This document shows, piece after piece, positions 1-18,728 of a DNA stretch of 64,000 nt. The first letter of the stretch is position 1. Each line of letters opens with the position of its first letter. A program made the translations under genes and the position numbers. The notes beneath the pieces were generated by a model. That model was not told where the DNA came from. It was given only the letters and a program-made list of their open reading frames with translations, and made no database searches. Source of the stretch: an uncultured Gemmatimonadales bacterium (lineage in GTDB: Bacteria; Gemmatimonadota; Gemmatimonadetes; Gemmatimonadales; GWC2-71-9); assembly GCA_963821385.1 (NCBI GenBank), contig CAWGDK010000003.1, forward strand, positions 74,699 to 138,698. The letters are read 5' to 3'.

Positions 1-994
1 GCAGCCACCATAACATCACCGACGAGATCGCCACCATCGATCCCAGCGCCCAGTAGAAGCCCAGTGGGTGATGTGTCATCGGCATCGAGCTGAAGTTCAT
101 GCCGTAGATCCCGCCGACCACGATCAGGGGCAACGCGATCGTGGCGACGATCGACAGCTGCTTCATCACTTTGTTCATGCGGTTCGAGGTCTGGGACAGG
201 TACGTCTCGAGCACGCCGGCCAGCAGGTCGCGCGTGGTGTCCACCGATTCCATGATCCGGATGGTGTGGTCGTAGACGTCCCGGTAGTACAGCTGCGTTT
301 CGGCCCGGATGTAGACGGAGGGCCGGTTGGTGAGCACGTTGAGCACTTCGCGCAACGGGCCGATGTGGCGGCGGAACGCGAACGCCGAGCGCTTCGCCTT
401 GAAGATCTCGTGGATCAGCTTTTCTTCGAACGACTCGAACAGCTTCTCCTCCAAGGTGTCCACGAGATCGTTGAGCGATTCCACCACCGGGAAGTAGGCG
501 TCCACGGCCTGGTCGATGATGGAATGCATCGTCATCTCGGCACCGCGGCCCAGCAGGTCCGGATTGCGCATCAGCCGGTCGCGCGTCGAATCGCAGCTCG
601 GGCTTTCGATCGCGTGCACGGTGACGAGGAAGTTCTTGCCGAGGAAGAAGTAAGTGTTAAACGTCTCAAGGTCGAACGGATCCGGGGTGGCGCGGTCGAA
701 GCGGATGCCCGACACCACGACGAACAGGTAGCGGTCGTACTCCTCGAGCTTCACCCGCGACCCGGGGGACAGCGTGTCCTCGATCGACAGCGGATGGAAG
801 CCGAACACCTTCTCGAGCAGGGCGTGCTGGTGCACGTCGGTCGAGTTGATATCCACCCACAGCTCGCCTTCGCCGTGCTCCACGATGTCCCGGATCCGTG
901 AGGGGGATAACTCCTGCTCGAGCTGGCCGTCGGGACGGCGATACAGGCTGGCGGGCCAGTGTGGGGAGGCGGCGGGAGCGGCGGTCGCGGTCAC
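1..994 (-). CDS. corA: CorA magnesium/cobalt transporter (3' end runs off window)
   Basis: Not in the ORF track. Manual translation from GTG at 994 gives ...LWVDIN...FGFHPLSIED...KLEEYDRYLF... and, near the window start, GGIYGMNF..MP (CorA GMN signature) followed by a hydrophobic helix. Confidence 0.92.
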   Translation of the reverse strand, partial: MTATAAPAASPHWPASLYRRPDGQLEQELSPSRIRDIVEHGEGELWVDINSTDVHQHALLEKVFGFHPLSIEDTLSPGSRVKLEEYDRYLFVVVSGIRFDRATPDPFDLETFNTYFFLGKNFLVTVHAIESPSCDSTRDRLMRNPDLLGRGAEMTMHSIIDQAVDAYFPVVESLNDLVDTLEEKLFESFEEKLIHEIFKAKRSAFAFRRHIGPLREVLNVLTNRPSVYIRAETQLYYRDVYDHTIRIMESVDTTRDLLAGVLETYLSQTSNRMNKVMKQLSIVATIALPLIVVGGIYGMNFSSMPMTHHPLGFYWALGSMVAISSVMLWWL

Positions 995-1006: not shown

Positions 1007-1172
1007 GTCCCCCGGCCAAATTGCTGCGCCGGTGCAGCAGTTTTTGCCATCGGGTCTGTCAAGACCGGTTTTTCGCCGCCGCACGGCTGATTCGCGTCAC
1101 TTACCTCTTTCTTTTCTGGCCGTCGTTCCTACATTCGGGCCCGTCCCCATACTGCGTAGAGAGCGCCACGGA

Positions 1173-4100
1173 GTGAGCCGTCAGCCGTTGAGGCGAAGAG
1201 CATCGTTGTGCGGATGGTTGGGGTTGCTCGGTCTCGCGACCGCAGTCTCCCCGCGCGCCGCCACCGCACAAATTGTCCGGGCGTTCACCCAGCGTTTCCC
1301 CACCACCAACACCACCGGCTCCATCGTCCTGATCGGCAACACGCTCTCGACGTGTAACGCCGCGGTGGCGAACTGCGTCAATGCGCGCGCCGGTATCGGC
1401 ACCGCCTTGAACCTCAACAACGATGCCTACACCAGCGTCGACGTCGATGTCGATGCTGACGGCACGACGTTCAATTCGAGCAGTGCCACGCTGACCCTGG
1501 CCGCTGGCGATTCGGTGATGTTCGCTGGCCTCTATTGGGGGGCGTACTCGGCGAGCGCGGCGCGAAACACGGTCCTGTTCCAGACGCCGGTCGCGGCCTA
1601 CACCACGATCACCGCTACGCAGCTCGATCAGGACGCCACGACCACCCAGAACTACCAGGGGTTCAGGGACGTCACCGCCCTGGTACGGGCGGGAGGCAGC
1701 GGCAACTACCTCGTCGCCAACGTGCAGCGCGAGTTGGCGGCCGCCCGGTACGCCGGCTGGACGCTCGTGGTGGTGTTGTACAATCAGGCTTCCCTCCCGC
1801 GCAGCCTGGTCGTGTACGACGGCTACGCGCGGGTATTCACCGGCGTCCCCGTCTCGATCGCCGTCAGCGGATTGAACACGCCGCCGGCCGGCGCGGTGAA
1901 CACGCAGCTCGGCATCGTCGGGTACGAGGGGGACCTCGGCATCGTCGGGGACGTGCTGCAGCTCAATGCGACGACCATCAGCGACGCCCAGAACCCGGCC
2001 AACAACCCCTTTAACAGCAGCTTGTCGGCCCTCGGCGTGCGCTTCAGCGCCAAGAACCCCGATTATGTGAACCAGCTCGCCTTCGATGCGGACATCCTCG
2101 ATGCAAGCAACATCCTGCCCAATGGGGCCACCACCGCCACGATTTCCCTGACGTCGACCGGCGACCAGTACTACCCCGGGGTGGTGACGTTCGCGAGCCA
2201 GCTCTATTCGCCCAATCTCTCGGGCCCGGGAAGCCTCGAAAAGACCGTCGTGGACGTGAACGGCGGCTCGATCCTGCCGGGCGATACCCTGGAATACACC
2301 ATCAACATGACCAATACGGGCCTGGACACGGCCGTGTCGGTCGTGCTCATCGACACGATCCCCGCGAACGCCACCTATGCCGCAGGGTCGCTGACGTTCG
2401 TCTCCTCGGTGACCGGTGGTCCTCCGGCTGGCGCCAAGACGGATGCCACGGGTGACGATGCCGCCAATCTCGACGTAGCCGGCAACCGGGTCTTGTTCCG
2501 GATCGGGGCCGGCGCCACGGCCGCCGCGGGCGGCAAGTTGGGGCCCACCCAGACCACGGTGGTGCGGTTCCGAGTGGTCATTTCCGGAGCCGCCGCTGCC
2601 GGCACCGTCGTGTCGAACCAGGCCCGCGTCAGCTACGCAGGCCAGAGTCTCGGCAATACCCTGATCGGCGTGAGCGACGATCCTGGGGTCGCGGGGCAGC
2701 AGGCGACGCAGGTGACTGTGACGGCGCCGGACCTCTCGATGGCCAAGAGCCACTCCGGCAACTTCACGGCCGGCGTGGCGGCGACGTACACGCTCACCAT
2801 CACCAATTCCGGAACCGCGGCCACGTTCGGGACCATCACTGCGATCGATTCCGCGCCGGCGGGGCTCACGCCCACGGGGGCGAGCGGCAGCGGATGGGCC
2901 TGCGGCGTCGCGGGTCAGGTCGTGACCTGCACCAACCCGGGCCCGCTGGCCGTGAGCGGTGTCAGCACCATCACCGTCAACGCGACCGTGCTGGCGACGG
3001 CCGTGCCGTCAGTGACCAACATCGCGCGCGTGGCCACCGCGGGTGACGCCAACGCGGCCAACGACCGCTCCACTGACGTCACCACCGTGGGCGCCGGGGC
3101 CGACCTCCAGATCACCAAGACGGATGGCGTGACGTCCGTGAACCCGGGCACGGCGCTCGTCTACACCATCATCGCGACGAATGCCGGGCCGAGCGCCGTC
3201 ACGGCGGCCCCGGTGACCGACACCTTCAACCCGAGCTTCTTCACCGTTGCGGGCGTCACCTGGACCTGCACCGCATCCGCCGGGTCGAGCTGCACCGCGA
3301 GTGGCAGCGGCAACATCAATACCACCGTAAACCTCCTGAGCGGCGGCACCGCCACGTTCACGGTTACGGCGCCGGTGCTGGTGAGCGCCAGCGGCACGAT
3401 CACCAATACCGCCACCATCGCCGTGCCGGCGGGGACGACTGAGCTGGCGGCGCCCAACAACAGCGCAACCGACAACAACACCGACGTCTCGACGGCCGCC
3501 GATATGGCGCTGACGAAGACGGACGCGCCCGACCCAGTAAATGCCGGTGCAACAATAACTTACACGCTGACCGCAACCAATAACGGCCCGTTGCCGGCCC
3601 AGACGGTCGCGATCCAGGACAATACGCCGGCGAACACGACCTTCCTCTCGGCAACCCCGAGTGCCGGCGGCAGCTGCATCACGCCGTCGGTGGGCAGCAC
3701 GGGGCTCGTCAACTGCTCCTGGGCCGGAGCGACTGCCACGGGGGCACCCAGCGCCCGCAGCGTGACGCTCGTCGTGACCGTGGGCTCCGGCACCGCCACC
3801 GGCACCATCATCTCGAACACCGGCACCGCGTCGAGCACCACGTTCGACCCGGTGGCCGGCAACAACAGCGCCACCACGACGACCACCACCGCCCTGTCCG
3901 CTGATGTAGCGATTACCCAGAGCGGACCGGCCAGCGTCGTTCCCGGAACGAACCTCGTCTACACGGTGACGGTGACGAACAACGGCCCCAGTGACGCGGC
4001 CGCGGTTTCGGTCGCCAACGTCACGCCCAGCGGCCTGACCTTCGTCTCGAACGCCGGTGCCTGCACCACGGCCTACCCGTGCAGCCTCGGGTCAGTTGCC

Positions 4101-7100
4101 GCAGGCGCCACCCGGGTGATCACCACGACGTTCAGCGTTCCGTCGGGCTACGCCGGCGCCAATCCGATCGTCAACACGGTGACCGTGAGCGCCACCACGG
4201 CGGACCCGGTGGCAGCGAACAACACGGCGTCCACCTCGACACCGGTGGCCGCGGGCTCCGCCAACGTACAGCTCACCAAGACCGGGCCCGCGACGGTCAC
4301 GCCGGGACAAACGGTCGCGTTCACCGTCACCGTCACCAACCTCGGGCCGTCCGACGCCGCGGGGGTTTCGGTCGCGGATCCCACGCCGGCGGGATTGACG
4401 TTCCTCTCGAACACCGGCTCGTGCGTGAGCGCCTACCCCTGTGCCCTGGGCACGGTGGCCTCGGGTGCGACGCGCACCATCACGACGACCTACCAGGTGC
4501 CGTCGGGCTATGCGGGCGCCAGTCCGATCGTGAACACCGCGACCGCGAGCGCCGTCACGAGTGATCCCGTGGGGGGCAACAACGCGCAAACGGCCAACGT
4601 GACGGTGAACGCCGCTTCCGCGGACCTCGCGATCACCAAGACCGGGCCGGCGAGCGTCGTCCCGGGCACCAGTGTGGTCTACACGATTACGGTGACGAAC
4701 AACGGGCCGAGTGATGCCGCGGCCGTCTCGGTGGCGGATGCGACTCCGGCCGGGTTGACCTTCAGCTCCAACAGCGGCGCCTGCGTCACCGCGTTCCCCT
4801 GCGCCTTCGGCACCATCACGGCCGGGGCGACCCGGACCATTACGACCACGTTCTCGGTCCCGTCGGGCTACAGCGGCGCGAACCCGATCCTCAACACGGC
4901 CACCGTCACCTCCACCACCAGCGATGCGGTCGCGGCCAACAACAGCGCCACGGCCTCGACCACGGTCAGTGCGGGATCCGCTGACGTGAGCATCACGAAG
5001 ACGGGCCCGGCGAGCGTGGTGCCGGGCACGAACGTGGTCTACACGATCACCGTGACGAACGCGGGGCCGAGTAACGCGGCCGGCGTCTCGGTCGCCGACG
5101 TCACGCCGGCGGGTTTGACCTTCGTCTCCAACGCAGGGGCATGCAGCGGTGCGTTCCCCTGCGCGCTCGGTACCATTGCGGCCGGGGCGAGTCAGGTCAT
5201 CACCACGACCTTCTCCGTGCCGCCCGCCTATGCCGGCGCGAACCCGATTCTGAACACCGCCACGGCCAGCGCCACCACGGGCGATCCGGTGCCTGCAAAC
5301 AATTCCGCCACCGCCTCGACCCCGGTGGCCGCCGGGTCCGCCAACCTGTCGCTGACCAAGACCGGGCCGGCCAGCGTGACCCCCGGGCAGACGGTCGCGT
5401 TTACCATCACCGTCACCAACGCGGGCCCGTCGGATGCGGCGGCCGTGTCGGTCACCGATCCGACGCCCGCGGGGCTGACGTTCCTGTCGAACACGGGGAA
5501 CTGCGTGACGGCGTTCCCGTGCGCCTTAGGGACCGTGCCGTTCGGTGCCACACGGACCATCACCGCGACCTACAGCGTGCCCTCCGGGTACGCCGGCGCG
5601 AGCCCGATCGCGAACGCGGCCACGGTCTCGAGTGCGACGTCCGATCCCGTCGCGGGCAACAACTCCCAGACGGCCAACGTCACGGTCAATGCGCCATCGG
5701 CCGATCTCGCCATCACCAAGACGGGCGCGGCGTCGGTGACCCCGGGCCAGACGGTCGTCTACACGGTCACGGTGACCAACAATGGACCCAGTGACGCCGC
5801 GGGCGTCTCTGTGGCCGACCCGACGCCGTCTGGGCTCACGTTCGTCTCGAACAGCGGTGCCTGCGTCGCCGCCTATCCCTGCGCCCTGGGCACGGTGACC
5901 GCCGGATCGACTCGGACCATTACGACCACGTACCAGGTCCCGTCGGGATACGCCGGCGCCAATCCGATTCTCAACACCGCCACGCTCAGCTCGCCCACCG
6001 CCGATCCGGTGGCCGGCAACAATACCGCGACGTCGTCCACGACGGTCGGTGCGGGATCGGCGGACCTCGCCATCACCAAGCTCGGGCCGGCGAGCGTCGT
6101 CCCGGGCACGAACGCGGTCTACACGATCACACTGACGAACAACGGCCCCAGCGATGCGGCCGCGGTCTCGGTCGCCGACATCACCCCGTCCGGCACGAAC
6201 TTCGTCTCGACGTCGGGAGACTGCGTCACCGCCTTCCCCTGCAGCCTGGGCACGGTCCCCGCCGGGGCGAGCCGCGTCATCACCGCCACGTACGCCGTGC
6301 CGTCGGGCTATGCGGGCGCGAACCCGATCGTCAATGCGGCCACCGCGAGCGCGTCGACGAGCGATCCGGTGGCCGGCAACAATACCGGCACGGCGTCGAC
6401 CCCGGTGGCGAGCGGCTCGGCCAACCTGCACGTCACGAAGACCGGACCGGCGACGGTCACCCCCGGCCTGAACGCCACGTTTACCATCACGGTGACCAAC
6501 AACGGGCCCAGTGACGCGGCCGGTGTGAGCGTGGCGGACGCCACGCCTGCCGGGCTGACGTTCCTCTCGAATGCGGGCAATTGCGTCTCCGCGTTCCCCT
6601 GTGCGCTGGGCACGATCCCGGCGGGCACGACCCGCACGATCACGTCGACCTATCAGGTCCCGTCCGGGTACGCCGGCGCGAACCCGATTCTCAATACGGC
6701 CTCGGCGACTTCGTCCACCGGCGACCCCGCTCCCGGCGATGAGGCCCAGACCGCGTCGGTCGCCGTCAACGCGCCCTCGGCCGACGTGCACCTCGCGATG
6801 ACGGGACCCGCCTCCGCGACGCCGGGCCAGTCGATCGCGTACACCATCACCGTCACCAACAACGGGCCGTCGGACGCCGCCAGCGTGTCGGTCGCGGACG
6901 TGACCCCGACCGGGCTCACCTTCGTTTCGACGAGTGGGGCCTGCACCGGGGCGTTCCCATGCGCATTGGGCAGCGTCGTGGCGGGCACGAGCCGGACCAT
7001 CACCGCCACGTATCAGGTGCCCTCGGGGTACGCCGGGCCAAATCCGATCGTCAACAGCGCCACGGCGAGCACACCTACGGCCGATCCGGCTCCGGGCGAC

Positions 7101-10100
7101 GAATCGGCGAATGCGTCGACCACGGTCACCTCGAGCTCGGCCGATCTCGCGATCACCAAGACGGGGCCCGCCAGCGTGGTTCCGGGCACCGATCTGGTCT
7201 ACACCATCACGGTCACGAACAACGGACCGAGCGATGCGGCCGGCGTGTCGGTCGCGGACGTCACCCCGGCGGGTGTGACCTTCGTATCAAACGCGGGTGC
7301 TTGCGTCACCGCGTTCCCGTGCAGCCTCGGCGCGATCACGGCTGGGGCGAGCGTGACGATCACGACGACCTACAACGTGGCGTCCGGATACGCAGGCGCG
7401 AACCCGATCGTCAATGCGGCCACCGTGAGCGCGTCGAGCGCGGATCCGGTGGCGGCGAATAATTCCTCGGCGACGTCCACGCCGGTGGCGTCGGGCCTGG
7501 CCGACCTCGTGCTCGCCCTGAGCGGACCGGCGTCGGTGACCCCGGGCCAGACGCTGGCATTCACGATCACCGTCACCAACAACGGCCCCAGCGACGCGGC
7601 GGGTGTGTCGGTCGCGGACGTGACGCCCTCGGGTCTCACGTACGTGGCGACCAGCGGCTCGTGCGCGAGCCCGTTCCCGTGCGCGCTCGGCACCATCCCC
7701 TCGGGGCAGGTGCGGACCATCACCGTGACCTATCAGGTGCCGTCGGGATACGCGGGACCGAATCCGATCGTCGATGCCGCATCCGTCACCTCGGCCACCA
7801 CGGATCCGGCACCGGGCAACGAGGGCCAGACCCTGCCGGTGACGGTCAACCCCGCCTCGGCGGATCTGAGTCTCACAGCGAGTGGCCCCGCGTCCGTCAC
7901 CCCGGGTCAGACCGCGGTCTACACGATTTCGATCACCAACAACGGGCCGAGTGACGCGGCGACGGTTACGGTGACTGATGCGACGCCGGCCGGGCTGTCC
8001 TTCGTCTCGACCAGTGGCGACTGCACCACCGCGTTCCCCTGCGCGCTGGGCACCGTGCCGGCGGGCGCAACCCGCACCATCACGGCCACGTTCCAGGTAC
8101 CGTCGGGATACGCAGGGGCCAACCCGATTCTCAACGTCGTGTCGGTCAGCTCGCCGTCGGCCGATCCGGTCCCCGGCAACGAGAGCCAGACGGTGACCAC
8201 GGTCGTCAATCCGCCCTCGGCCGACCTCGCGATCACGAAGACGGGACCAGCGAACGTGCTGCCAGGCACCGATCTCGTCTACACGATCACCGTCACCAAC
8301 CTGGGACCGAGCGACGCGGCCGCGGTCTCGGTCGCCGACCTCACGCCCGCTGGTTTGACCTTCGTCTCCACCGCCGGGGCCTGCGCAACGGCGTTCCCCT
8401 GCGCGTTGGGCGTCGTCACCGCAGGAGCGAGTCAGGTCATCACGGCCACGTTCGCTGTCCCGTCGGGCTACGCCGGCGCCAACCCGATCGTCAACACCGC
8501 GTCCGTGAGCTCTCCCACAGGCGACCCGGTGGCGGCGGACAATGCCGCCTCGACGTCCACGCCCGTGACGGCGGGTTCCGCCGACCTGAGCCTCACGGCG
8601 GTCGCCCCGGCATCGGTCGTGCCCGGTGTCTCGATCGCCATCGCGATCACCGTCACCAACTCGGGGCCGTCCGACGCCGCGGGCGTCTCCGTCGCCGACG
8701 TCACCCCGGCCGGGTTGACCTTCGTCTCGAATGCGGGGGCGTGTACCACCGCCTTCCCGTGCAACCTGGGCACGGTGCCGGCCGGGCAATCGCGCGTCAT
8801 CGCCGCGACCTATCTCGGTCCCGTCGGGCTACGCGGGTGCCAACCCGATCCTGAACACGGCGTCGGTGACCTCGGTAACGAGCGACCCGAACCCGGGGAA
8901 CGAGGCGCAGACGGTCAGCATTGCGGTCGACCCAGCGTCCGCCGACCTGGCGATCACGAAGACCGGTCCTGCGTCGGTCACGCCCGGCCTCGATGCGACG
9001 TACACGATCACGATCACCAACAACGGCCCCAGTGACGCCGCCAGCGTCGCGGTCGCCGACCTGACCCCCGCCGGCCTCGGGTTCGTGTCAAACGCCGGCG
9101 ATTGCACCAGCGCCTTCCCCTGCACTATCGGCACGGTGGTCGCCGGGACGACGCGGACCATCACGACCACGTACCACGTCCCGTCGGGCTATGCCGGGGC
9201 GAACCCGATCGTGAATACGGCCTCGGTCAGCTCGCCCACCGGCGACCCGGTCAGCGGCAACGAATCGGCCACCACCACGACGCCGGTAAATCCGCCCGCG
9301 GCAGATGTACAGATCACGAAGACCGGGCCGGCGAGCGTGGTCCCGGGCGGGTCGCTCGTGTACACCATCACCGTGACGAACAACGGCCCGTCGGACGCGG
9401 CCGGCGTGACGGTGAAGCGACCTCACGCCGTCCGGGCTGACGTTCGCTGCGAACGCGGGTGCCTGCGTGACGGCGTTCCCGTGCACCCTGGGATCGATGC
9501 CCGCCGGGTCGAGTCAGGTCATCACGGCCAGCTTCGACGTCCCCTCGGGGTACGCCGGCTCGAACCCGATCGTCAACAGCGCGTCGGTGTCGGCGACGAC
9601 CGGCGATCCGCTGGCGGGGAACAACTCCAGCACGACCAACACCCCGGTGTCCGCGGGCACCGCGGATCTCACCCTGACCAACACGGGACCGGCGTCGGTG
9701 ACCCCGGGTCAGAACGTCACGTTCACGATTACGGTCACCAACGCGGGGCCGAGCGACGCGGCGGGCGTCAGCGTGGCCAACGCGACGCCGGCGGGCCTGG
9801 TGTTCGTGTCGACGACTGGGGACTGCGCGACGACGTTCCCGTGCAACCTGAGCACGATCCCGGCGGGCGAGACGCGCACCATCACCGCGACGTTCCTGGT
9901 GCCGTCGGGCTACAGTGGGGCCAACCCGATCCTCAGCACGGCGTCGGTCACATCGGTGACGCCCGATCCGAGCCCCGGAGACGAGGCCCAGACGACCGGC
10001 GTGGCCGTGAACCCGGCGTCCGCGGATCTGGTGGTCACCAAGAGCGGCCCCGCGAACGTGATCGCGGGCCAGGACGCCGTCTACACCATCACCGTCACGA

Positions 10101-13100
10101 ACAACGGCCCCAGCGATGCGGCGAGCGTCTCGGTGGCCGATCCCACGCCGGCCGGGCTGGCGTTTGTTTCGACGACGGGGGCGTGCACGACCGCCTTCCC
10201 GTGCGCACTGGGCGCCGTCCCTGCGGGGGCCACGCGGACCATCACGGCGACCTACCACGTTCCGGCGTCGTACGTGGCGCCGAGCGCGATCGTCAACACG
10301 GCGACGGTGAACACGCCAACGGGCGATCCGACCACCGGCAACGAATCCGGGACCGCGTCGACGACTCTGGGGCCGGCTTCGGCGGATCTGACGATTACGG
10401 CGACCGGGCCCGCGGTGTCGACGCCGGGGACGAACATCGACTACACGATCACCGTCACCAACGCCGGGCCGAGCGACGCGCAAGGCGTCACGATCGACGA
10501 TCCGACGCCGAGCGGGCTCGTGTTCGTCTCCGCGACGCGGGCCGTGCGCGGGCGGCTTCCCCTGCTCCGCCGGCACTCTCGGCGGCGGGAAGCAGCATCA
10601 GCCTCACCGTCACGTTCCAGGTCCCGCCCGGGTACGCCGGACCGAACCCGATCGTCAACGCCGTCTCGGTGACGGCCACTACCGCCGACCCTGCCGGCGG
10701 CAACAACGCCACGTCCGCCGCGACGACCGTCGCCACGGGCGCCGCCGACCTGGCGTTGACCATGACTGGCCCGGCCAGCGTCACGCCGGGGACGAACGTG
10801 GTATTGACGATCTCGGTCACCAACAATGGGCCGAGTGATGCTTTGGCGGCGAGCGTCGCCAACCCGACACCCGCCGGCCTGACCTTCGTCTCCACGACCG
10901 GGGCGTGCAGCGGCACCTTCCCGTGCACCATCGGGACGGTGCTCGTCGGGCAGACCAGCACCATCACGGCGACCTACCTGGTGCCGTCCGGCTACTCCGC
11001 GCCCGATCCGATTCTCAGCACCGCGTCAGTGTCCGCGGCGACCACCGACACGATTCCGGCCAACGACGCGGCCACCGTGTCGGTGCCGCTGGCGGCGGCC
11101 GATGCCGATCTGGGCGTGACGATCGCGGCGCCGGCCTCGGTGGTGGCCGGGCAGAACGTGGTCTACACGATCACGGTCACCAATGGCGGCCCGGCCGACG
11201 CATCGAGCGTGACGCTCGCGAACCCGACGCCCGCCGGTCTGACGTTCGTCTCCAACGCCGGCGCCTGCGCCACCGCGTTCCCCTGCGCGCTCGGCACGGT
11301 GCCGGCGGGAGCGGTGCGGACGGTCACCGCAACGTATCTCGTGCCCGCGAGCTACAGCGGCGCCAATCCGATCGTCGCGACGACGACCGTGTCCTCGCCC
11401 ACGGCGGATCCGGCGGCGGGCGACAACAGCGCCACCGCCCAGACCGCGGTCACCATGTCCGCCGATGTCGCCATCACCAGCGCCGGTCCGGCGACGGTGA
11501 CGCCCGGTCAGACGATCGCGCTCACGATCCAGGTGACGAACGCCGGCCCGAGCGACGCCACGGGAGTCTCGGTCGACAACCCGACGCCCGCCGGCCTCAG
11601 CTTCGTGTCCAACGCCGGCGCCTGCACCACCGCGTTCCCGTGCGCCTGGGCACCCTGCCACCAGGATCGAGCCGCACCATCACGGCCACCTTCCAGGTGC
11701 CGCCGGCGTACAGCGGTCCCGACCCGATCGTGAACACCGCGACCGTCAGCACGACGTCGACCGATCGCGGCGCCCGCGAACAACAGCGCCACGGTCTCCA
11801 CGACGTTGACGGCGTCCTCGGCCGACGTGTCGGTGACCAAGACCGGGCCCGCGAGTGTGTTGCTCGGGACCAACGCGGTCTACACGGTCACGGTCAGCAA
11901 CGCCGGCCCGAGCGATGCCGCGGGCGTCTCGCTGGCGGATCCCACCCCCGCCGGCCTGACGTTCGTTTCGGCCTCCGCGCCGTGTGCCGCGGGATTCCCG
12001 TGCGCCCTCGGCACCATGACGCCGGGCGCCTCGATTGTCGTCACGGTGACGTACCTGGCACCGCTCGGATACGCCGGACCCGATCCGATTGTGAACACCG
12101 CGACTACGAGCACCACCACCGCCGATCCGAATGGCGCCAACAATCAGGCGTCCGCCTCGACTGCGATCGCCGCGCCCAGCGCCGACCTCTCGGTGATCAA
12201 GACGGGGCCGGCGAGCGTGGTGCCCGGCACCAGCATCTCGTACTCGGTGACGGTGGCCAACGCCGGCCCGAACGACGCGACAGGCGTTTCCCTGGCCGAT
12301 CCCACGCCCGCCGGCTTGAGCTTCGTCTCGGCTTCGGCGCCTTGCAGCGGCGGCTTCCCCTGCGCGCTCGGCACGATGGCCACCGGGGCCAGCGTGGTGG
12401 TCACGGTCACGTACGACGTGCCGGCGGGCTATGCCGGGGCGAGCCCGCTCGTCAACACGGCGACGGTCAGCGCCGTGACCGCAGATCCGGTCGCCGCCAA
12501 CAACAGCCAGAGCGCGTCCGCGACCGTCACGCCGATGGCGGACCTCGGGATCACCAAGACCGACGGGCTGACGACCGTCACCCCGGGCGGCCCCGTGACG
12601 TACACCATCGTCGTCACCAACGCTGGCCCGAGCGTGGTGACCGGTGCTGCCATCGACGACCCGGTTCCCGCGCAGCTCACCGGCGTGACCTGGACCTGCG
12701 TCGCGACCGCTGGCAGCTGTGGCTCAGGCGCGGGCACGGGGAGCGTCGCCTCGACGGTGGACCTGTTGGTGGGCGGAACCGCCACCTTCTCGGTCACCGG
12801 CACGGTGGGTCAGACGAGCGGATCGCTCACCAACACGGCGACCGTTGCGGCCCCGGCGGGCACGATCGATCCGGTGCTCGCGAACAACAGCGCCACCGAC
12901 GTCACCACGGTGAATGCGGTCGACGTCCAGATTGCCAAGACCCACAGCGGCGCTTTCACCCTGGGCAGCACCGGCACCTACACCCTCACCGTGACGAACA
13001 TGGGCACGGTGGGCACCACCGGCACCCTGACGGTGCTCGATTCCTTGCCGGCCGGACTCACCTACAGCACGGCGAGTGGCGCCGGGTGGAGCTGCTCGAC

Positions 13101-16100
13101 CGCCGCACCGGTCGTCACCTGCACCACGGCGGCGCCGCTCGCGGCCAGCGCGGCGAGCTCCATCGCGCTGACGGTCTCGGTGCAACCCGGCGCCGCCGCG
13201 TCGGTGACGAACGTCGCCCGGGTGCAGGCGGCGGGTGACGTGAACGCCGCCAACGATCGGGCCTCCGATCCCACGGCAATCACGGCCGTCGATCTGGCGC
13301 TCGCCAAGCGGCACAGCGGCGTGTTCGCGGTTGCCCAGACCGGCGTCTATACGCTGGCCGTGACCAACAAGGGGACCGCCGCCACGATCGGGCCGGTCAC
13401 CATCACCGACACGCTACCACAAGGTCTCGGATTCCTCTCCGGCACGGGCTCGGGCTGGACCTGCTTCGCCACCGGCGCGGTAGTGACCTGCACCAACGCC
13501 GGACCGCTGGCCGCGGGTGATTCCAGCCTGGTCACGCTGTCGGTCAGCGTCGGATTTGCGGCCGTGCCCCAGGTGACCAACGGCGCCGTGGTGGTCACGC
13601 CGGGCGACACGTCTTCAGCCGACAACAGCGCTCTCGACGCTCCCACCGTGGTCGTGGCGGTTGCCTCGCTGGCGATCGAAATGGACGCGTCGCGGACCGA
13701 GGTCGAGATTGGCGATCAGTTCGAATACACGATTCGGGTGCGCAACACGGGCGTCTCGCCCGCTCCCGACGTCACGGTCGACGATCGCCTGCCGGCCGGG
13801 TTCTCCTACGTCACCGGTACGGCGCGGCGCGACAATGTGCCGGTCGCCGATCCGGCGGGCGGCCACGGGCCCGGGCTCGTCTTTACGCTCGACACCCTCG
13901 CGCCGACGTCGCAGACCACGCTGACGGTTCGCGTGCGCGTGCTGCCCGGTGCCGCGACCGGCGACGGCATCAGCCGCGCCATTGCCCGGTCGCCGTTGGG
14001 ACCGTCGCAATCGAACGAGGCCGCGGTCAAGGTCCTGCTCACCGGTGGCGTGTTCACCGATGAAGGGCTGATCGTCGGCAAGGTCTATGCGCAGTCGGGC
14101 GGTGCCGGCGTGCCCGGCGTGCGGATCTACATGGAGGACGGCACGTCGACGGTCACCGACGGCGAGGGCAAGTACAGCTTCTACGGGGTCACCCCGCGCC
14201 TGCACATCGTGAAGGTCGACGCCACGACCGTGCCGGACGGCGCGACCCTCGTGCTGGTGTCGAATCGCCAGGCCGGGAACGCCGCCAGCCACTTCGTCGA
14301 CGTGCAACGCGGCGAGATGCACCGCGTCGACTTCGCCCTGGCGGGTACCTTCACCGCGACATCGAACGTCAAGATGCCGGACACGGCGGCCGGGGCGTTT
14401 GGGTTGCGGCCGGCGGAGCTGCCGAGCGTCGGCGCGTTCGCGCCGGGCGTGCCGCAGTACTCGCGTGACTCCTCGGGCGAGGTGTACACCGGCCTCCTGC
14501 CGGCCCGCACCCTGACCAACGACAACTCCAACTCCCCGGCGTTGCCGGATGCGGAGCTGGTGCCGACGCTCTCCATTGGCCGCCACGGCGTGATCTCCGT
14601 CCAGGTGCCGCTGGGCGCGATCCCGGCCGACGGCCAGACGGTGGTCCCGGTGGCGATCCGGCTGCTCGATGCGCTGGGCGCCCCGCTCGCCGATCGCACC
14701 GTGGTGACGCTCGAGGCGAGCGCCGGCCGCTGGCAGGTCGAGGACGAGGACCCGGTGGCGCCGGGCGTGCAGACCACCATCACCGGCGGGGCCCGCAATC
14801 TCTCCCTCGTCGCCGCGGGTCAGGCGGGCCAGGCGCAGCTGCGGGTGAGCGCGAACGGACTCAGCGGCTCGGCGACGCTCGTCTACGTCCCGGCGAGCCG
14901 CCCGCTTCTGGCCGCCGGCGTGATCGAGGGCCGGGTCGACCTGCGCTCCTGGTCGCTACCGCCGGACCGCATCCGCGACCGGTTTGAAGACGAGCTCCGT
15001 GCCCTGTCGCTCAAGAACGCGAACGACCGGATTCACGCGGGTACCCGCGCCGCCGTGTTCGTGAAGGGAACGGTGGGACCGGAGTTCGTGATCGACCTGC
15101 GTCTCGACACCGAGCGCGACCCGCGGGCCCGGTTGTTCCGCGACATCCGGCCGGAGGAGTTCTATCCGGTGTACGGCGATGCGTCGGTCAAGGAATTCGA
15201 CGCGCAATCCACGAGCCGGCTGTACCTGCGGGTCGAGAAAGCCCGGAACTACTTCCTGTTCGGCGACTACGGCACCATGCCGGCCACCGAAAACCGGATG
15301 CTGGGCGCCTATTCCCGCAGCCTGAACGGCGCGCTGCAGCACTTCGAGAACCAGCGCTCGCAGGCCAATTTGTTCGCCAGCCGCGGGCACGAGTCGCAGG
15401 TGATCGACGAATTCCCGGGGCGCGGGATTTCCGGACCGTTCGTCCTGAGCCAGCGCAGCGGCCTCACCAACAGCGAACGGGTGGAGATCATCACGCGGGA
15501 CCGGAACCAGCCGGCCGTGATCCTCAAGACCCAGCTGTTGACGCGGTTCGCCGACTATACGATCGAGCCGTTCACGGGCCGGCTACTGCTCAAGGCGCCG
15601 GTGCCCAGCGTGGATCAGAACCTGAACCCAGTGTCGATCCGGGTGACCTACGAGGTCGACCAGGGCGGCACGCCGTTCTGGACCTTCGGCGCCGACGCGC
15701 AGATCCGGGCCACCGACCGGCTGGAGCTGGGCGGCTCCGCCGTCCACGACGACAATCCGCTGGGCGCCCGCAGCCTGGTCTCGGCCAATTCGACGATCCG
15801 GTTCGGGGACCGCACCTATCTCCTGGCCGAAGTGGCGCATGCCGACTCGGCGGGCGCGGCCCGGGGTGACGCGTTCCGCTTCGAGCTGCGCCACTTCTCC
15901 GAGCGCTGGGAAGCCCGGCTGTTCGGTCTCGATGCGGAAGCCGACTTCGCCAATCCGTCGTCCGCGGTGGGACGGGGCCGGCGCGAGCTGGGCCTGCGGG
16001 GCACGGGCATTCTCGACCGCCACACGCGGGTGCGGGCCGAGGCGCTGCGCAGCGAGGATCTGGTCACGCTGGTGCGCCGCATCGGGATCGACGTCGGGGT

Positions 16101-17322
16101 GGAGCGAGAGCTGACCAACCGGTTGCGGGCGGAGCTGGGCCTGCGGCACGCCGAGCTGAATACCGATTCAGCGAAGACGAACAGCATTCACTTCCGGCTC
16201 ACCGGCCAGGTCGGGCCGCGCGCCTCGGTATTCGGCGAGTACGAGCAGGCCCTGTCCGCCGGCGACGAGCACCGCGCGCTGATCGGCGGCGACTACCGCT
16301 TCGCCCAGCGCGCGCGGGTGTACGCCCGGCATGAGCTGATCTCTTCGTTCACGGGACCGTACGACCTGAACGGCTCGCAGACGCAGAACACCACGGTGAT
16401 CGGGCTCGATGCCGACTACCTGCGCAACGGCTCCGTGTTCACCGAATACCGTGCGCATGACGTGTTGAGTGGCCGCGAGGCCGAGGCGGCGATCGGACTG
16501 CGCAACCGGTGGACGCTGGCCCCGGGGCTGCGGCTGAATACCTCGTTCGAGCGGGTCAGCCCGCTCGCCGGAGCGGGTAGCGGTGAGGCGACCGCCCTGA
16601 CGGGCGCCCTCGAGTACTCCGACAACCCGCTGTGGCGCGGCTCCGCGCGGCTCGAATACCGCACCGCCCCGAGCGGCGACAACTGGCTGGCGTCGCTCGG
16701 CTACGGTCGCAAGCTGAGTCAGGACTGGACGGCCCTGGGCCGCAGCGTCCTGAGCGCGCTGCCGTCCGATGAGCTGCACGAGCGCACGCAGATCGGCATC
16801 GCGTTCCGCCAGACCGACCAGAACCGGTGGAGCCTGCTGGGACGCTACGAGCACAAGTACGACCGTGCGGCCTCGCTCACCGGCGCCGGCATCCGCGACG
16901 CGGCGCACGTGTTCTCGAGCCACGTCAACTTCCAGCCGGTGACCACGTGGACCTTCTCGGGCGAGCTGGCGCTGAAGTTGGCGTCGGAATGGGCGCCGGG
17001 CGGCGTGGTGCACACGCACGCCGAGCTGGTCGATATTCGCGCCGTTCGCGATCTCAACGCGCAGTGGGATGTGGGCGCGAGCACGCGGGCCCTCGTCAGC
17101 CTGAGCACCGGAACCTCCCAGTACGGCATCGGGCTCGAAATCGGCCGCACGCTGCGGACCGATCTGCGGGTGGCGCTCGGCTACAACCTGTTCGGATTCC
17201 GGGATCGCGACCTGACGGGCGAGAACTACACGGACCAGGGTGCCTACGTGCGGTTCGGCCTGAAGTTCGACGAGAGCTTGTTCGGTCTGCGGCCTACGCC
17301 AGCGCGGCCACCAGCGCCGTAA
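1173..17322 (+). CDS. Giant surface protein: signal peptide, DUF3344-like head, 32 DUF11-type Ig-like domains, SdrD-B/Ig-like linkers, C-terminal outer-membrane beta-barrel-like region (split by 6 apparent indels)
   Basis: ORFs 1032-9035, 8731-11733, 9467-10672, 10905-13238 (short part) and 11806-17322 join into one repeat protein, with frame changes at ~8817, ~9417, ~10538, ~10581, ~11646 and ~11767. The GTG start at 1173 gives a Sec-type signal (MSRQPLRRR...GLLGLATAVSPRAATA-Q). Repeats read ADLxITKTGP..PG..YTITVTNxGPSDA. The C-terminus has amphipathic strands ending YVRFGLKFDESLF. Confidence 0.85.
3900..12537 (+). repeat. 24 tandem ~360-bp coding repeats (120-aa DUF11-type domains)
   Basis: Unit starts at 3900, 4260, 4620 ... 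8580, 8941, 9301, 9662, 10022, 10382, 10744, 11104, 11461, 11821, 12181. The period is 360 bp except at indels and one slightly shorter unit. Confidence 0.95.
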
Positions 17323-18193
17323 CTCCGGCGGCCAGCAGGTCCAGCCGGTACCCGCCCTCCAGCACCGCCACAACCGGACAGTCCGGCAGCCGCGACCGCA
17401 GCTCGGTCGTCCAGGTCGTGATGTCGTCCGGCTCCAGCGTGAATCCTCCCAACGGATCCCCGGCCAACGCATCGAATCCCGCTGAGACGAGTAACACGTC
17501 TGGCGTCCAGCCGGAGAGCGCGGCCTCCACACCCGACAACAGGTCCCGTACGTAGCGAAACCGCGGCAATCCCGGCGGCCGGGGCACGTTGAAGACGTTG
17601 CCCACGCCGCGCTCGTCGGCGGCGCCGGTGCCCGGATACCAGGGAAACTGGTGCAACGACACGTACCGGATGGATGGGTCGGACCGGACCAGCGCTTGCG
17701 TGCCGTTGCCGTGATGCACATCCCAGTCGACGATGAGAACCCGTTCGGCACCGGACGCCTGGGCATGACGCGCGGCGACCACCACGTTGTTCACGAAACA
17801 GAACCCCATCGCGCGCGCGGCCTCGGCATGATGTCCCGGCGGACGCGTCGCGGCGAAGGCGGTGCCGCCGGCCATCGCCGCGGTCACGGCCCGAATCGCC
17901 GTGCCGGCGGACGCCGCGATCGCTTCCCAGCTGCGCGGGCCTATGTAGGTATCGGGGTCGATGGAGCCGCCCCCGGCGGCTGCCATCGCGGCGAGCGCAT
18001 CCAGATGGCTCGCCGGGTGCACCCGTTCGAGCGCCGCGCGATCCGCGGGGGCGGCCTCCACCCACGTGACCATTGGCGCCAATTCGGGGGCCCGCAGCGC
18101 CTCGAGCACCGCTTCGATACGTTCGGGACGTTCCGGGTGCCCGGCCCACGCCTGATGCAGCCGCGTCGCCGGGTGGTAGGTGACGGTGGTCAG
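17294..18193 (-). CDS. Histone deacetylase / acetoin-utilisation family deacylase
   Basis: Motifs HPERPERI, DPDTY, RPPGHHA, GFCFVNN, DWDVHHGNGTQ, SAGFD..GDPLG, LEGGY. Start placed at the CTG overlapping the upstream stop; the 3' end overlaps the giant gene convergently by 29 nt. Confidence 0.93.
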   Translation of the reverse strand: MTTVTYHPATRLHQAWAGHPERPERIEAVLEALRAPELAPMVTWVEAAPADRAALERVHPASHLDALAAMAAAGGGSIDPDTYIGPRSWEAIAASAGTAIRAVTAAMAGGTAFAATRPPGHHAEAARAMGFCFVNNVVVAARHAQASGAERVLIVDWDVHHGNGTQALVRSDPSIRYVSLHQFPWYPGTGAADERGVGNVFNVPRPPGLPRFRYVRDLLSGVEAALSGWTPDVLLVSAGFDALAGDPLGGFTLEPDDITTWTTELRSRLPDCPVVAVLEGGYRLDLLAAGVTALVAALA

Positions 18194-18456
18194 TTGGAGA
18201 GGTGGCGCTCTTTGAGGAGCTGACGGAGCGCCTCGGCCTCCGCCTTCATCTCCCGACGCCCCTGGTCTACGTCCTGGAGGGTCTGCCGGTACTGCCGCCA
18301 CACCACCACGACGGCCGCCGCGGCCCCGGCACACACCATGCCGCCCCACACTAACCCCGGGCGTTTGAGCTCGAGTCCGCCCCACACCAGCAGCACGGCG
18401 TCGAGCAGCAGAAACCCGACGGCGAACGTGGCCAGCGGGCGGCCCGGCGTCTTCAC
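18190..18456 (-). CDS. Small membrane protein (two TM helices plus coiled-coil tail)
   Basis: 88 aa, two hydrophobic segments, 4-nt overlaps with both neighbours. Confidence 0.75.
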   Translation of the reverse strand: MKTPGRPLATFAVGFLLLDAVLLVWGGLELKRPGLVWGGMVCAGAAAAVVVVWRQYRQTLQDVDQGRREMKAEAEALRQLLKERHLSN

Positions 18457-18728
18457 CGCACCGCTCTCCGTCGCGCCGGCAGAACGATGAACGGCGCATT
18501 GGCGCCCGCTCCGAGCGCCCGCAGGGTGGTGGAGTCGTCGGTGACCGCCGCGCCACGGAACTTCACGATGTACGCCGACGCGGGCAGGTCGCTCCGCTTC
18601 AGGGCGCGGGTCAGCGCCTGCCGTTTCAGGTCGGCGATCGTGGTCTCCGGCGTGACGGCGATGAAGACCTGGTCCCAGGCGTCGGTGACCATGACGCGCA
18701 CGGCAAAGCGATCGGCAGCGACCGTCAT
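18453..18728 (-). CDS. Ubiquitin-like (beta-grasp, YukD/EsaB-like) protein
   Basis: TTIADLKRQAL...AYIVKFRGAAVTDDSTTLRALGA parallels ubiquitin DTIENVKAKI...[20 protein letters not shown]; ends RRRAVR with no GG; ATGA-coupled. Confidence 0.65.
   Translation of the reverse strand: MTVAADRFAVRVMVTDAWDQVFIAVTPETTIADLKRQALTRALKRSDLPASAYIVKFRGAAVTDDSTTLRALGAGANAPFIVLPARRRAVR

Follow-up and report, generated by a model that had tools for sequence, protein, structure and literature searches.

A giant DUF11 repeat protein with a predicted large C-terminal outer-membrane barrel in an uncultured Gemmatimonadales bacterium

Results

The Locus and Its Reading Frame

The DNA analyzed here, called the window, is a stretch of 64,000 nucleotides (nt) from an uncultured Gemmatimonadales bacterium (GenBank assembly GCA_963821385.1, contig CAWGDK010000003.1, positions 74,699 to 138,698 of the forward strand). 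Close to its start, between the genes for CorA (2–994, minus strand) and a Hist_deacetyl protein (17294–18556, minus strand), lies a single very long gene on the plus strand. A description made earlier from the letters of the window (the original prediction) had placed the gene alone between corA and a deacetylase gene, and had proposed that it encodes, across six 1-nt indels, a chain of ~5,380 amino acids (aa) with a signal peptide, a head, 32 immunoglobulin (Ig)-like domains and its own barrel. Both neighbors were confirmed. The coordinates, the number of breaks and the length were also right: with the six 1-nt breaks bridged, 1173–17322 reads as a single chain, which in our own reading has 5,381 residues. 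The features of the gene are listed in Table 1.

Table 1. Features of the giant gene, with positions counted from the first letter of the window.
Feature	Position	Strand	Basis and remarks
Predicted Sec signal peptide, 33 aa	1173–1271	+	Basic start RRR, hydrophobic core LCGWLGLLGLATAV, end ATA/Q; read from the translation
Head, DUF3344-related, two beta-sandwiches, likely binding tip	1272–2210	+	Residues 34–346, AlphaFold2 (AF2) model
Stalk, 32 Ig-like units of DUF11/CLIPPER type (24 canonical, 120 aa or 360 nt each)	2238–13851	+	Pfam, hidden Markov model (HMM) of the window's own units
Frame break 1	8817	+	Frame 0 to 1, window has 1 extra base; base absent in X1, X3 and X7 at all covering depth
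Frame break 2	9414–9417	+	Frame 1 to 2, window has 1 extra base; absent at 9414 or 9417 in X1, X2 and X3
Frame break 3	10537–10538	+	Frame 2 to 0, window has 1 extra base; absent in X1, X2 and X3
Frame break 4	10580	+	Frame 0 to 1, window has 1 extra base; absent in X1 and X3
Frame break 5	11644–11645	+	Frame 1 to 0, window lacks 1 base; inserted at 2.7/6.14 of depth (X1) and 27.6/31.5 (X3)
Frame break 6	11765–11767	+	Frame 0 to 1, window has 1 extra base; absent in X1 (3.7/3.7 of depth), X7 (4.1/4.1) and X3 (27.6/32.7)
CarboxypepD_reg/SdrD_B-like beta-sandwich (GKVY...TDGEGKYSF)	14071–14223	+	PF13715, E 2.7e-5, below cut-off
Big_1/invasin-like Ig domain (IPADGQT)	14599–14995	+	Weak Pfam matches, profile match to 1cwv
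Conserved beta domain, 125 aa (RDRNQP, NPVSIRVTYEV)	15220–15591	+	Residues 141–264 of the tail model, pLDDT 84–92
Predicted large outer-membrane barrel, ~32 consecutive long strands	15628–17268	+	DSSP on the AF2 model, residues 277–823
C-terminal tail (DESLF helix, Pro-rich end) and stop codon	17269–17322	+	Translation, AF2 model

In the deposited sequence the region 1008–17322 (plus strand) is tiled by four frames (2,675, 1,004, 799 and 1,862 codons) that run from stop to stop and overlap. When the three forward frames are compared side by side, a 120-residue repeat is seen to run on from one to the next, and by this reading the frame changes at about 8815 (0 to 1), 9415 (1 to 2), 10540 (2 to 0), 10590 (0 to 1), 11660 (1 to 0) and 11770 (0 to 1). 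The 5,381 residues were thus put together from seven in-frame segments, with an X joining each break. None of the seven contains an internal stop over 16 kb, and every repeat unit past each break scores as a full DUF11 domain.

The breaks were compared with Logan contigs of four public sequencing runs from four studies (X1, X2, X3, and X7), mapped on 8500–12000. These runs hold the stretch in part (at most 0.20 of the sampled words), and bins that were not covered were not counted as evidence. The resulting table of indels has ten rows. All of them fall at the six break sites, and their sign is always frame-restoring. Record 8 of X1 and record 32 of X7 are identical to the window except for the gap, and record 27 of X7 has five further differences in 427 bases. 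The contigs of these relatives keep the frame at all six breaks, in agreement with a single gene as originally predicted. All six breaks lie within 3 kb of the most repetitive part of the gene, and long genes nearby are unbroken, namely those for GlyRS, an M13 peptidase and a penicillin acylase in the window and for PriA in the 14-kb upstream flank. We conclude that the six breaks are very probably consensus (assembly) errors in a repetitive stretch. Phase variation was considered as their cause and rejected: as the six sites lie outside homopolymers and simple repeats, neither slipped-strand phase variation nor the classic long-read error fits.

Within 8500–12000 the contigs of all four short-read runs fragment or jump in the repeat array, with at least 15 such joints. 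Short-read assemblies therefore collapse this gene, and lengths of family members taken from them are unreliable.

Signal Peptide, Head and Stalk

Read by eye on the translation, residues 1–33 fit the predicted Sec-type signal. The mature start after it, AQ-IVRAF, aligns with homologs (AQVLRQF in locus L021) and with the A2 consensus.

The head was modeled by AF2 from an alignment of 42 rows, the window and 41 homologs that are 29–54% identical to it. The model has a mean predicted local distance difference test (pLDDT) of 90.6 and a predicted template modeling score (pTM) of 0.87, and is all-beta with two sandwiches. In total 53 homologs of the head were found; they are N-terminal in DUF11, cadherin-like and Big_9 proteins from several phyla. 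The description of this ~310-aa part as DUF3344-like stands in part. The window's own head has no Pfam match at all, DUF3344 included, even at E ≤ 10. Through its homologs, however, the assignment holds by transitive homology, because 15 of the 42 rows match PF11824 (DUF3344; best E 8.2e-8), the window's row not being among them. Fold searches with the head gave a template modeling (TM) score of at most 0.26 in Foldseek, with a weak match to PNGase F, and a best Z of 6.8 in VIA, where matches of the carbohydrate-binding module (CBM) kind reached a Z of ~4.5 over residues 208–346. These matches are too weak, and neither a PNGase F nor a CBM-like function was assigned. Among the N-terminal clusters that a survey lists for predicted fibrillar adhesins, DUF3344 is one of ambiguous function (PMC9210967).

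By score the stalk belongs to the DUF11 family, with PF01345 at E = 0 and 1100.5 bits over 18 stretches in segment 1 and TIGR01451 (NCBIfam) at 44 bits against a cut-off of 24. Pfam DUF11 finds 18 + 2 + 4 + 3 + 6 = 33 stretches over the segments, some of which are halves cut by the breaks; the HMM built from the window's own DUF11 units finds 32, the number that had been predicted. Canonical units score at E 1e-45 to 1e-61 and are on average 61% identical, and Tandem Repeats Finder reports a period of 360 with 67% matches on 3927–8497. By motif, the Lys is kept in 20 of the 32 units, the Asn in 25 and both in 19. Two Cys are present in 30/32 units. Most units carry V-x-V-x-D at about +34, a spacing that at the level of the motif is similar to that in 9IFR. 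DUF11 has been renamed CLIPPER and is described as a stalk domain of fibrillar adhesins, for which a Lys-Asp-Asn isopeptide is seen in a crystal structure (Lys715, Asp748 and Asn806 in 9IFR; PMC12617251).

Pre-barrel Domains and Barrel

Between stalk and barrel, two Ig-like or related beta-sandwich domains had been named from the sequence. For the first, called SdrD-B-like, the name fits the homologs, which carry PF17210 SdrD_B or PF13620 before the barrel, whereas the window's own stretch matches CarboxypepD_reg models below their cut-offs. For the second, the invasin-like Ig domain, the Pfam matches to Invasin_D3 and Big_1 are accompanied by a match to invasin 1cwv (E 0.0019) when a profile of 69 tails is compared with the Protein Data Bank (PDB) sequences; in the AF2 model of the tail, strands at residues 10–48 correspond to the Big_1-like part. 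The end of the Ig domain is joined to the conserved beta domain by a linker that is modeled with low confidence and yet is highly conserved (RDI-P-E-YPVYGD). The beta domain is the best-conserved part of the family and holds most of its invariant or near-invariant columns. It is possibly a plug or translocation domain.

The tail model covers the last 840 residues and was made by AF2 with the 69-sequence alignment. It has a pLDDT of 79.2 and a pTM of 0.75, and its 32 strands are at pLDDT ~80–95. The last strand of the predicted barrel is GAYVRFGLKF, which we take to be a form of the beta-signal. Residues K822, F823, D824, and E825 are nearly invariant, F823 being the end of this strand, and the chain continues for 22 aa past it. 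The barrel-like end had been put at ~800 aa; it does model as a barrel, but the strands span ~550 aa, and the remainder of the 840-aa tail consists of part of the Big_1-like domain and the conserved beta domain. With ~32 strands in the AF2 model, the barrel would be, as proposed, far larger than the 12-stranded type V barrel.

The 840-aa tail matches no Pfam family above the cut-off and no NCBIfam family; OMP_b-brl on its last strands is weak (E 0.0086). The expectation that no characterized secretion family would be matched thus holds for both collections. At E ≤ 1 the tail profile finds only invasin (by the Ig part) and OmpT porins (E ~0.005) among the PDB sequences. By structure, Foldseek returns TonB-dependent receptors, LptD, SlpA, MtrB, PapC and SprA for the barrel, with TM of only 0.17–0.25. 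A wide VIA search places PapC first (Z 14.7, root-mean-square deviation (rmsd) 7.9, 323 residues aligned), with maltoporin at Z 14.0. In a second VIA comparison FimD and PapC take ranks 1–5 (Z 14.2–15.6, rmsd 6.4–13.4, 310–357 aligned), with VDAC and maltoporin at 14.0–14.2. All Foldseek and VIA rows listed for the tail are membrane barrels, outer-membrane and mitochondrial. The ESM Atlas clusters found with it are named only "outer membrane protein" or "hypothetical" and have no Pfam family in common. The tail is therefore modeled as a large, putatively closed membrane barrel without a clear relative, since the structural scores of usher, VDAC and maltoporin tie. We treat the resemblance to ushers as a lead and not as a finding.

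The Barrel Family

An exhaustive phmmer search with the barrel found 3,144 cluster representatives (at 50% identity) at E ≤ 1e-3, of which 1,312 at E ≤ 1e-30. Among the top 150 matches, most proteins are 1,500–5,000 aa long and match at their very end. In the GTDB genomes, 548 stretches encode a relative of the barrel. The carriers are Gemmatimonadota, many Betaproteobacteria, Verrucomicrobiota, Nitrospiraceae, Geobacteraceae, Desulfuromonadales, Steroidobacter and Terriglobia, and among them are the cultured Noviherbaspirillum suwonense DSM 26001 and Betaproteobacteria bacterium GR16-43.

In the original prediction it had been supposed that DUF11 proteins and this kind of barrel are often separate genes of one cluster, so that the fusion in the window would link them functionally. 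This does not hold for the barrel gene. Of the family members sampled, 19 of 19 have DUF11 on one polypeptide with the barrel (1–24 stretches), most of them together with SdrD_B or CarboxypepD_reg. Reading frames were surveyed in 48 of the 80 kept loci, and in 48/48 the barrel is part of a single long frame that extends at least 295 aa upstream of it. The fusion is thus the rule in the family and no peculiarity of the window gene. The frame ends within 125 nt of the barrel match in 41 of the 48 loci, extends 480–1,143 nt beyond it in six and is interrupted in one. The window gene is an unusually long member of a large unnamed family, and it is the family, not the fusion, that is the interesting object.

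The supposition is in part borne out elsewhere in the family: outside Gemmatimonadota additional DUF11 genes stand beside the barrel gene (see below), and short forms exist that have a signal peptide, ~100 aa, the Big_1-like domain and the barrel, ~1,030–1,090 aa in all and without DUF11 (P0112, P0118, P0119, P0097, P0101, P0113, P0114, and P0054). The head is found fused to a barrel protein in the window, L021 and L020, and in P0121, P0167 and P0128 (three of 256 stored proteins).

Some members depart from this layout. The six extended frames (L002, L004, L015, L017, L039, and L043) may be fusions of barrel and OmpA or frames running on in GC-rich DNA; the 1,198-aa P0007 has a precomputed OmpA domain. 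P0125 (3,217 aa) has the barrel in mid-chain (1201–2052), followed by MAP3K_TRAF_bd and TPR-S domains, and is probably two genes called as one. In P0130, P0133, P0165 and P0196 the match also lies far from the end of the chain.

Gene Clusters Around the Barrel in Other Lineages

Neighborhoods were compared by clustering the flanking open reading frames (ORFs) of 44 loci, the window and 43 relatives. Outside Gemmatimonadota, a same-strand cluster was found in the order C2, C1, barrel gene, C3, C4, for example in L012, L014, L022, L026, L029, L030, L034, L035, and L037, reaching ~3–7 kb upstream and 0–7 kb downstream of the barrel gene. C2 is a DUF11-type repeat protein of ~183 aa (27/44 loci) and C1 a DUF11 protein of ~929 aa (29/44). 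The gene for C3, an OmpA/Pal-like protein (16/44), comes immediately after the barrel gene and often shares 4 nt with it, and C4 is a large DUF11/DUF7933 protein (15/44). Gemmatimonadota loci are without C1 and C2, some having an OmpA-like gene, and all four are missing from the window.

Between the window's head and the N-terminus of C4 in L040 there is 42% identity over 519 aa, and the same head also opens C4 in L043 and L059. In this respect the idea that the fusion joins components encoded separately elsewhere holds in part, and only for the head-bearing protein, whose head opens the downstream gene in these three loci. In L059 a separate downstream DUF11 protein (L059:13798-19083) has the DUF3344-type head twice, at residues 15–352 and 792–1095.

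A motif, G-T-x-I-x-N-Q-A-x-A-x-Y, follows the signal peptide in 21 of 30 C1 proteins and in 10 of 29 barrel proteins of the cluster loci (e.g., L035:2998-5682, L075, and L042), and is absent from the window protein. It resembles the last DUF11 strand, Asn included, and judged by this likeness it could form a donor-strand-like joint between subunits.

Neighboring Genes and the Rest of the Assembly

The gene had been said to have no secretion partner beside it. This holds for the annotated ORFs over ~14 kb upstream and 9 kb downstream, among which there is no secretion, usher, type I secretion system (T1SS) or sortase gene (5 of the 12 scanned ORFs have no Pfam match). In the nine contigs of the assembly, which is 78.8% complete, we found no second barrel and no second DUF11 gene. 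Homologs of C1 and C2 are absent from it, apart from one weak 92-aa match that lies within the giant gene. Matches to C4 in the assembly are confined to the giant gene, and the OmpA matches elsewhere cover no more than the generic OmpA domain.

The longest frame of the Hist_deacetyl gene, which is convergent with the giant gene, overlaps its last 29 nt (17294–17322). The true start of this frame is probably further in, as its Pfam domain begins only at residue 140.

Discussion

We consider it probable that the locus holds an intact gene whose product is a giant fibrillar adhesin with an outer-membrane anchor of its own. The order of the domains, the lack of partner genes and the known role of CLIPPER domains in stalks lead us to this reading. 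The chain would be exported by Sec, and the general barrel-assembly machinery would use the terminal beta-signal to place its C-terminal barrel of ~32 strands in the outer membrane. The N-terminal 4,600 residues would then be outside the cell, as a DUF11/CLIPPER stalk of more than 100 nm with the DUF3344-type beta-sandwich head at its tip, in which most stalk domains appear to keep the Lys-Asp-Asn isopeptide triad and the Cys pair. The likeliest way out would be the barrel of the protein itself, in the manner of an autotransporter, and the conserved beta domain of 125 aa would then lie, like the Big_1-like domain, inside the pore or next to it. Such an autotransporter-like mode is proposed because of the domain order and the lack of partner genes, and own-barrel export would be the simplest route for the single-gene form of Gemmatimonadota. 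It had been suggested that the gene could be a self-contained secretion module. Self-export through the barrel is plausible; together with surface exposure, adhesion and the length of the stalk, it is something we infer.

Several points weigh against this reading. The topology is a prediction at the level of strands, in which the conserved domain may or may not plug the lumen and the Big_1-like domain may lie on either side of the membrane. The domains next to the barrel match their families below the curated cut-offs (PF13715 with 24.5 bits against 32.2; Invasin_D3 at E 5.4e-4 and Big_1 at E 2.2e-3). At the last two break sites a minority of the depth in X1 or X3 is without the change, and the break sites are outside homopolymers, so that the usual type of long-read error is no explanation; the six indels may be real in the window's strain. 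As the genome is incomplete, partner genes may have been missed, lying in its missing part. Finally, most other phyla pair the barrel gene with three further DUF11 genes and an OmpA-like gene. With such a cluster, the barrel may serve other subunits and not always be self-sufficient.

Among known systems, the type Va autotransporters are similar in having a Sec signal, an N-terminal passenger and a C-terminal barrel in one chain with no adjoining partner genes. Theirs is a 12-stranded barrel of ~280 aa that comes with a helical linker, and a beta-helix is the usual passenger, whereas the window protein has ~32 predicted strands, the conserved 125-aa beta domain and an Ig-like passenger. There is no autotransporter family among the Pfam matches of the 840-aa tail at E ≤ 10, and at the same threshold no match to IAT_beta. 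The latter is of interest for the type Ve proteins intimin and invasin, which the window protein resembles by a Big_1-type Ig domain next to the barrel, with the weak matches to Big_1 and Invasin_D3 and the profile match to 1cwv. The type Ve barrel is N-terminal, 12-stranded and preceded by LysM; in the window the barrel is C-terminal, and the order is thus reversed.

The RTX adhesins LapA and MpIBP, exported by T1SS, also exceed 5,000 aa and have an Ig-like repeat stalk and a ligand-binding end. They have a C-terminal RTX secretion signal, an N-terminal retention module and adjacent genes for an ATP-binding cassette (ABC) transporter, a membrane fusion protein (MFP) and TolC. No RTX family was found in the C-terminal 1,140 aa of the window protein and no ABC, MFP or TolC gene among its annotated neighbors; a retention module was not found either. 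Likewise, the Pfam and NCBIfam matches of the tail include no Por_secre_tail, CHU_C or LPXTG, the marks of type IX secretion and of sortase substrates. Deinococcus SlpA, a 30-stranded barrel, is alike in its very large size and gives the longest structural alignment (408–438 residues, Z 11.5–13.7, rmsd 14.5–15.1). SlpA forms trimers and has an N-terminal SLH domain and a coiled coil, and by profile against the PDB sequences it has no sequence similarity to the window's tail. Similar in its passenger is B9T28_05395 of Acinetobacter silvestris, for which an N-terminal adhesive domain, a tandem DUF11 stalk and the Lys-Asp-Asn triad are described (PMC12617251). That protein ends in an OmpA-like anchoring domain, whereas the anchor of the window protein would be a large barrel; the main text of PMC12617251 uses neither the word "barrel" nor the term "outer membrane".

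The cluster form in other phyla keeps alive a multi-subunit alternative, in which the barrel acts as an usher-like pore that in most lineages would export or polymerize separate DUF11 subunits encoded beside it, and the window gene is a derived fusion with a former substrate (head and stalk). The usher barrel has 24 strands, fewer than the ~32 of the window. The conserved same-strand C2/C1/C3/C4 genes at the barrel gene speak for this alternative, as do the homology of the window's head to the N-terminus of C4, the place of FimD and PapC at the top of the structural comparisons, and the N-terminal motif resembling a DUF11 strand that C1 and barrel proteins have in common. As in FimD and PapC, there would be a large barrel with an internal beta-sandwich and, in other phyla, neighboring genes for secreted Ig-like proteins. 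On the other hand, the structural scores are matched by those of VDAC and maltoporin, the Foldseek TM values are low, and the tail has no match to Usher (PF00577) at E ≤ 10. The cluster-type relatives have DUF11 and OmpA-like neighbors, no PapD-like chaperone family was found among the cluster proteins scanned (12 + 8), and no chaperone or pilin gene lies beside the window gene. C1 and C2 are missing from the Gemmatimonadota loci and from the window, which has no partner genes, and the barrel protein carries its own passenger in every member and locus surveyed. We therefore regard an usher-like pore as rather unlikely.

It is also unlikely, in our judgment, that the barrel is an anchor or porin only, with the Ig-like part in the periplasm or exported by a machine encoded elsewhere (TAM-like, type II secretion-like or other). 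Periplasmic N-terminal domains are found on many outer-membrane barrels, and the incomplete genome leaves room for such a machine. In 16 of the 44 loci the next gene after the barrel gene is OmpA-like and peptidoglycan-binding, which points to a periplasmic connection. Yet 32 Ig-like domains of the usual size would far exceed the width of the periplasm, and the window shows no other secretion gene next to this one. Furthermore, CLIPPER domains and DUF3344 heads are reported from extracellular fibrillar adhesins (PMC12617251, PMC9210967).

A true pseudogene, in which six real frameshifts of the window's strain prevent the full-length protein from being made, is quite improbable: all six indels are present in the assembly as deposited and none is in a homopolymer run as a classic long-read error would be, but the segments are free of stops, the units past the breaks remain full DUF11 domains, contigs from four other studies (some of them otherwise identical) have the frame-restoring state at all six sites, and the breaks affect only 3 kb of the most repetitive part, the other long genes nearby being unbroken.

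Beyond the adhesin with its own anchor, which we prefer for the window, a wider proposal may be made, though we hold it as possible and open to considerable doubt. The barrel could represent an undescribed and widespread outer-membrane pathway for isopeptide-locked DUF11 fibers on diderm bacteria, in which the ~32-strand barrel, together with a conserved inner beta domain, would serve for translocation and anchoring alike. Proteobacteria, Verrucomicrobiota, Desulfuromonadales and Acidobacteriota would then use separate DUF11 subunits and an OmpA-like tie to the peptidoglycan, and the subunits might be joined by the N-terminal strand that is like the last DUF11 strand. Gemmatimonadota would condense tip, stalk and pore into one chain, and the window gene would be the single-chain proof that tip and barrel belong together. 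In the openly accessible literature that we searched, we found no description of the barrel or of its gene cluster.

To our knowledge, few routes are known by which diderm bacteria display long adhesins (type I, type V, chaperone-usher and type IX). The barrel has no Pfam or NCBIfam family and no close solved fold, and yet it is present in 3,144 clusters from no fewer than six phyla of bacteria living in soil and water, nearly always tied to the recently characterized CLIPPER stalk domain. If it is true that the barrel exports its own passenger, it would represent a new class of self-contained display system and might find use as a scaffold that displays large cargo on the cell surface. If it serves neighboring subunits, it would represent a new pathway of fiber assembly. 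Either way, the family is a concrete and testable target, for which cultured carriers exist.

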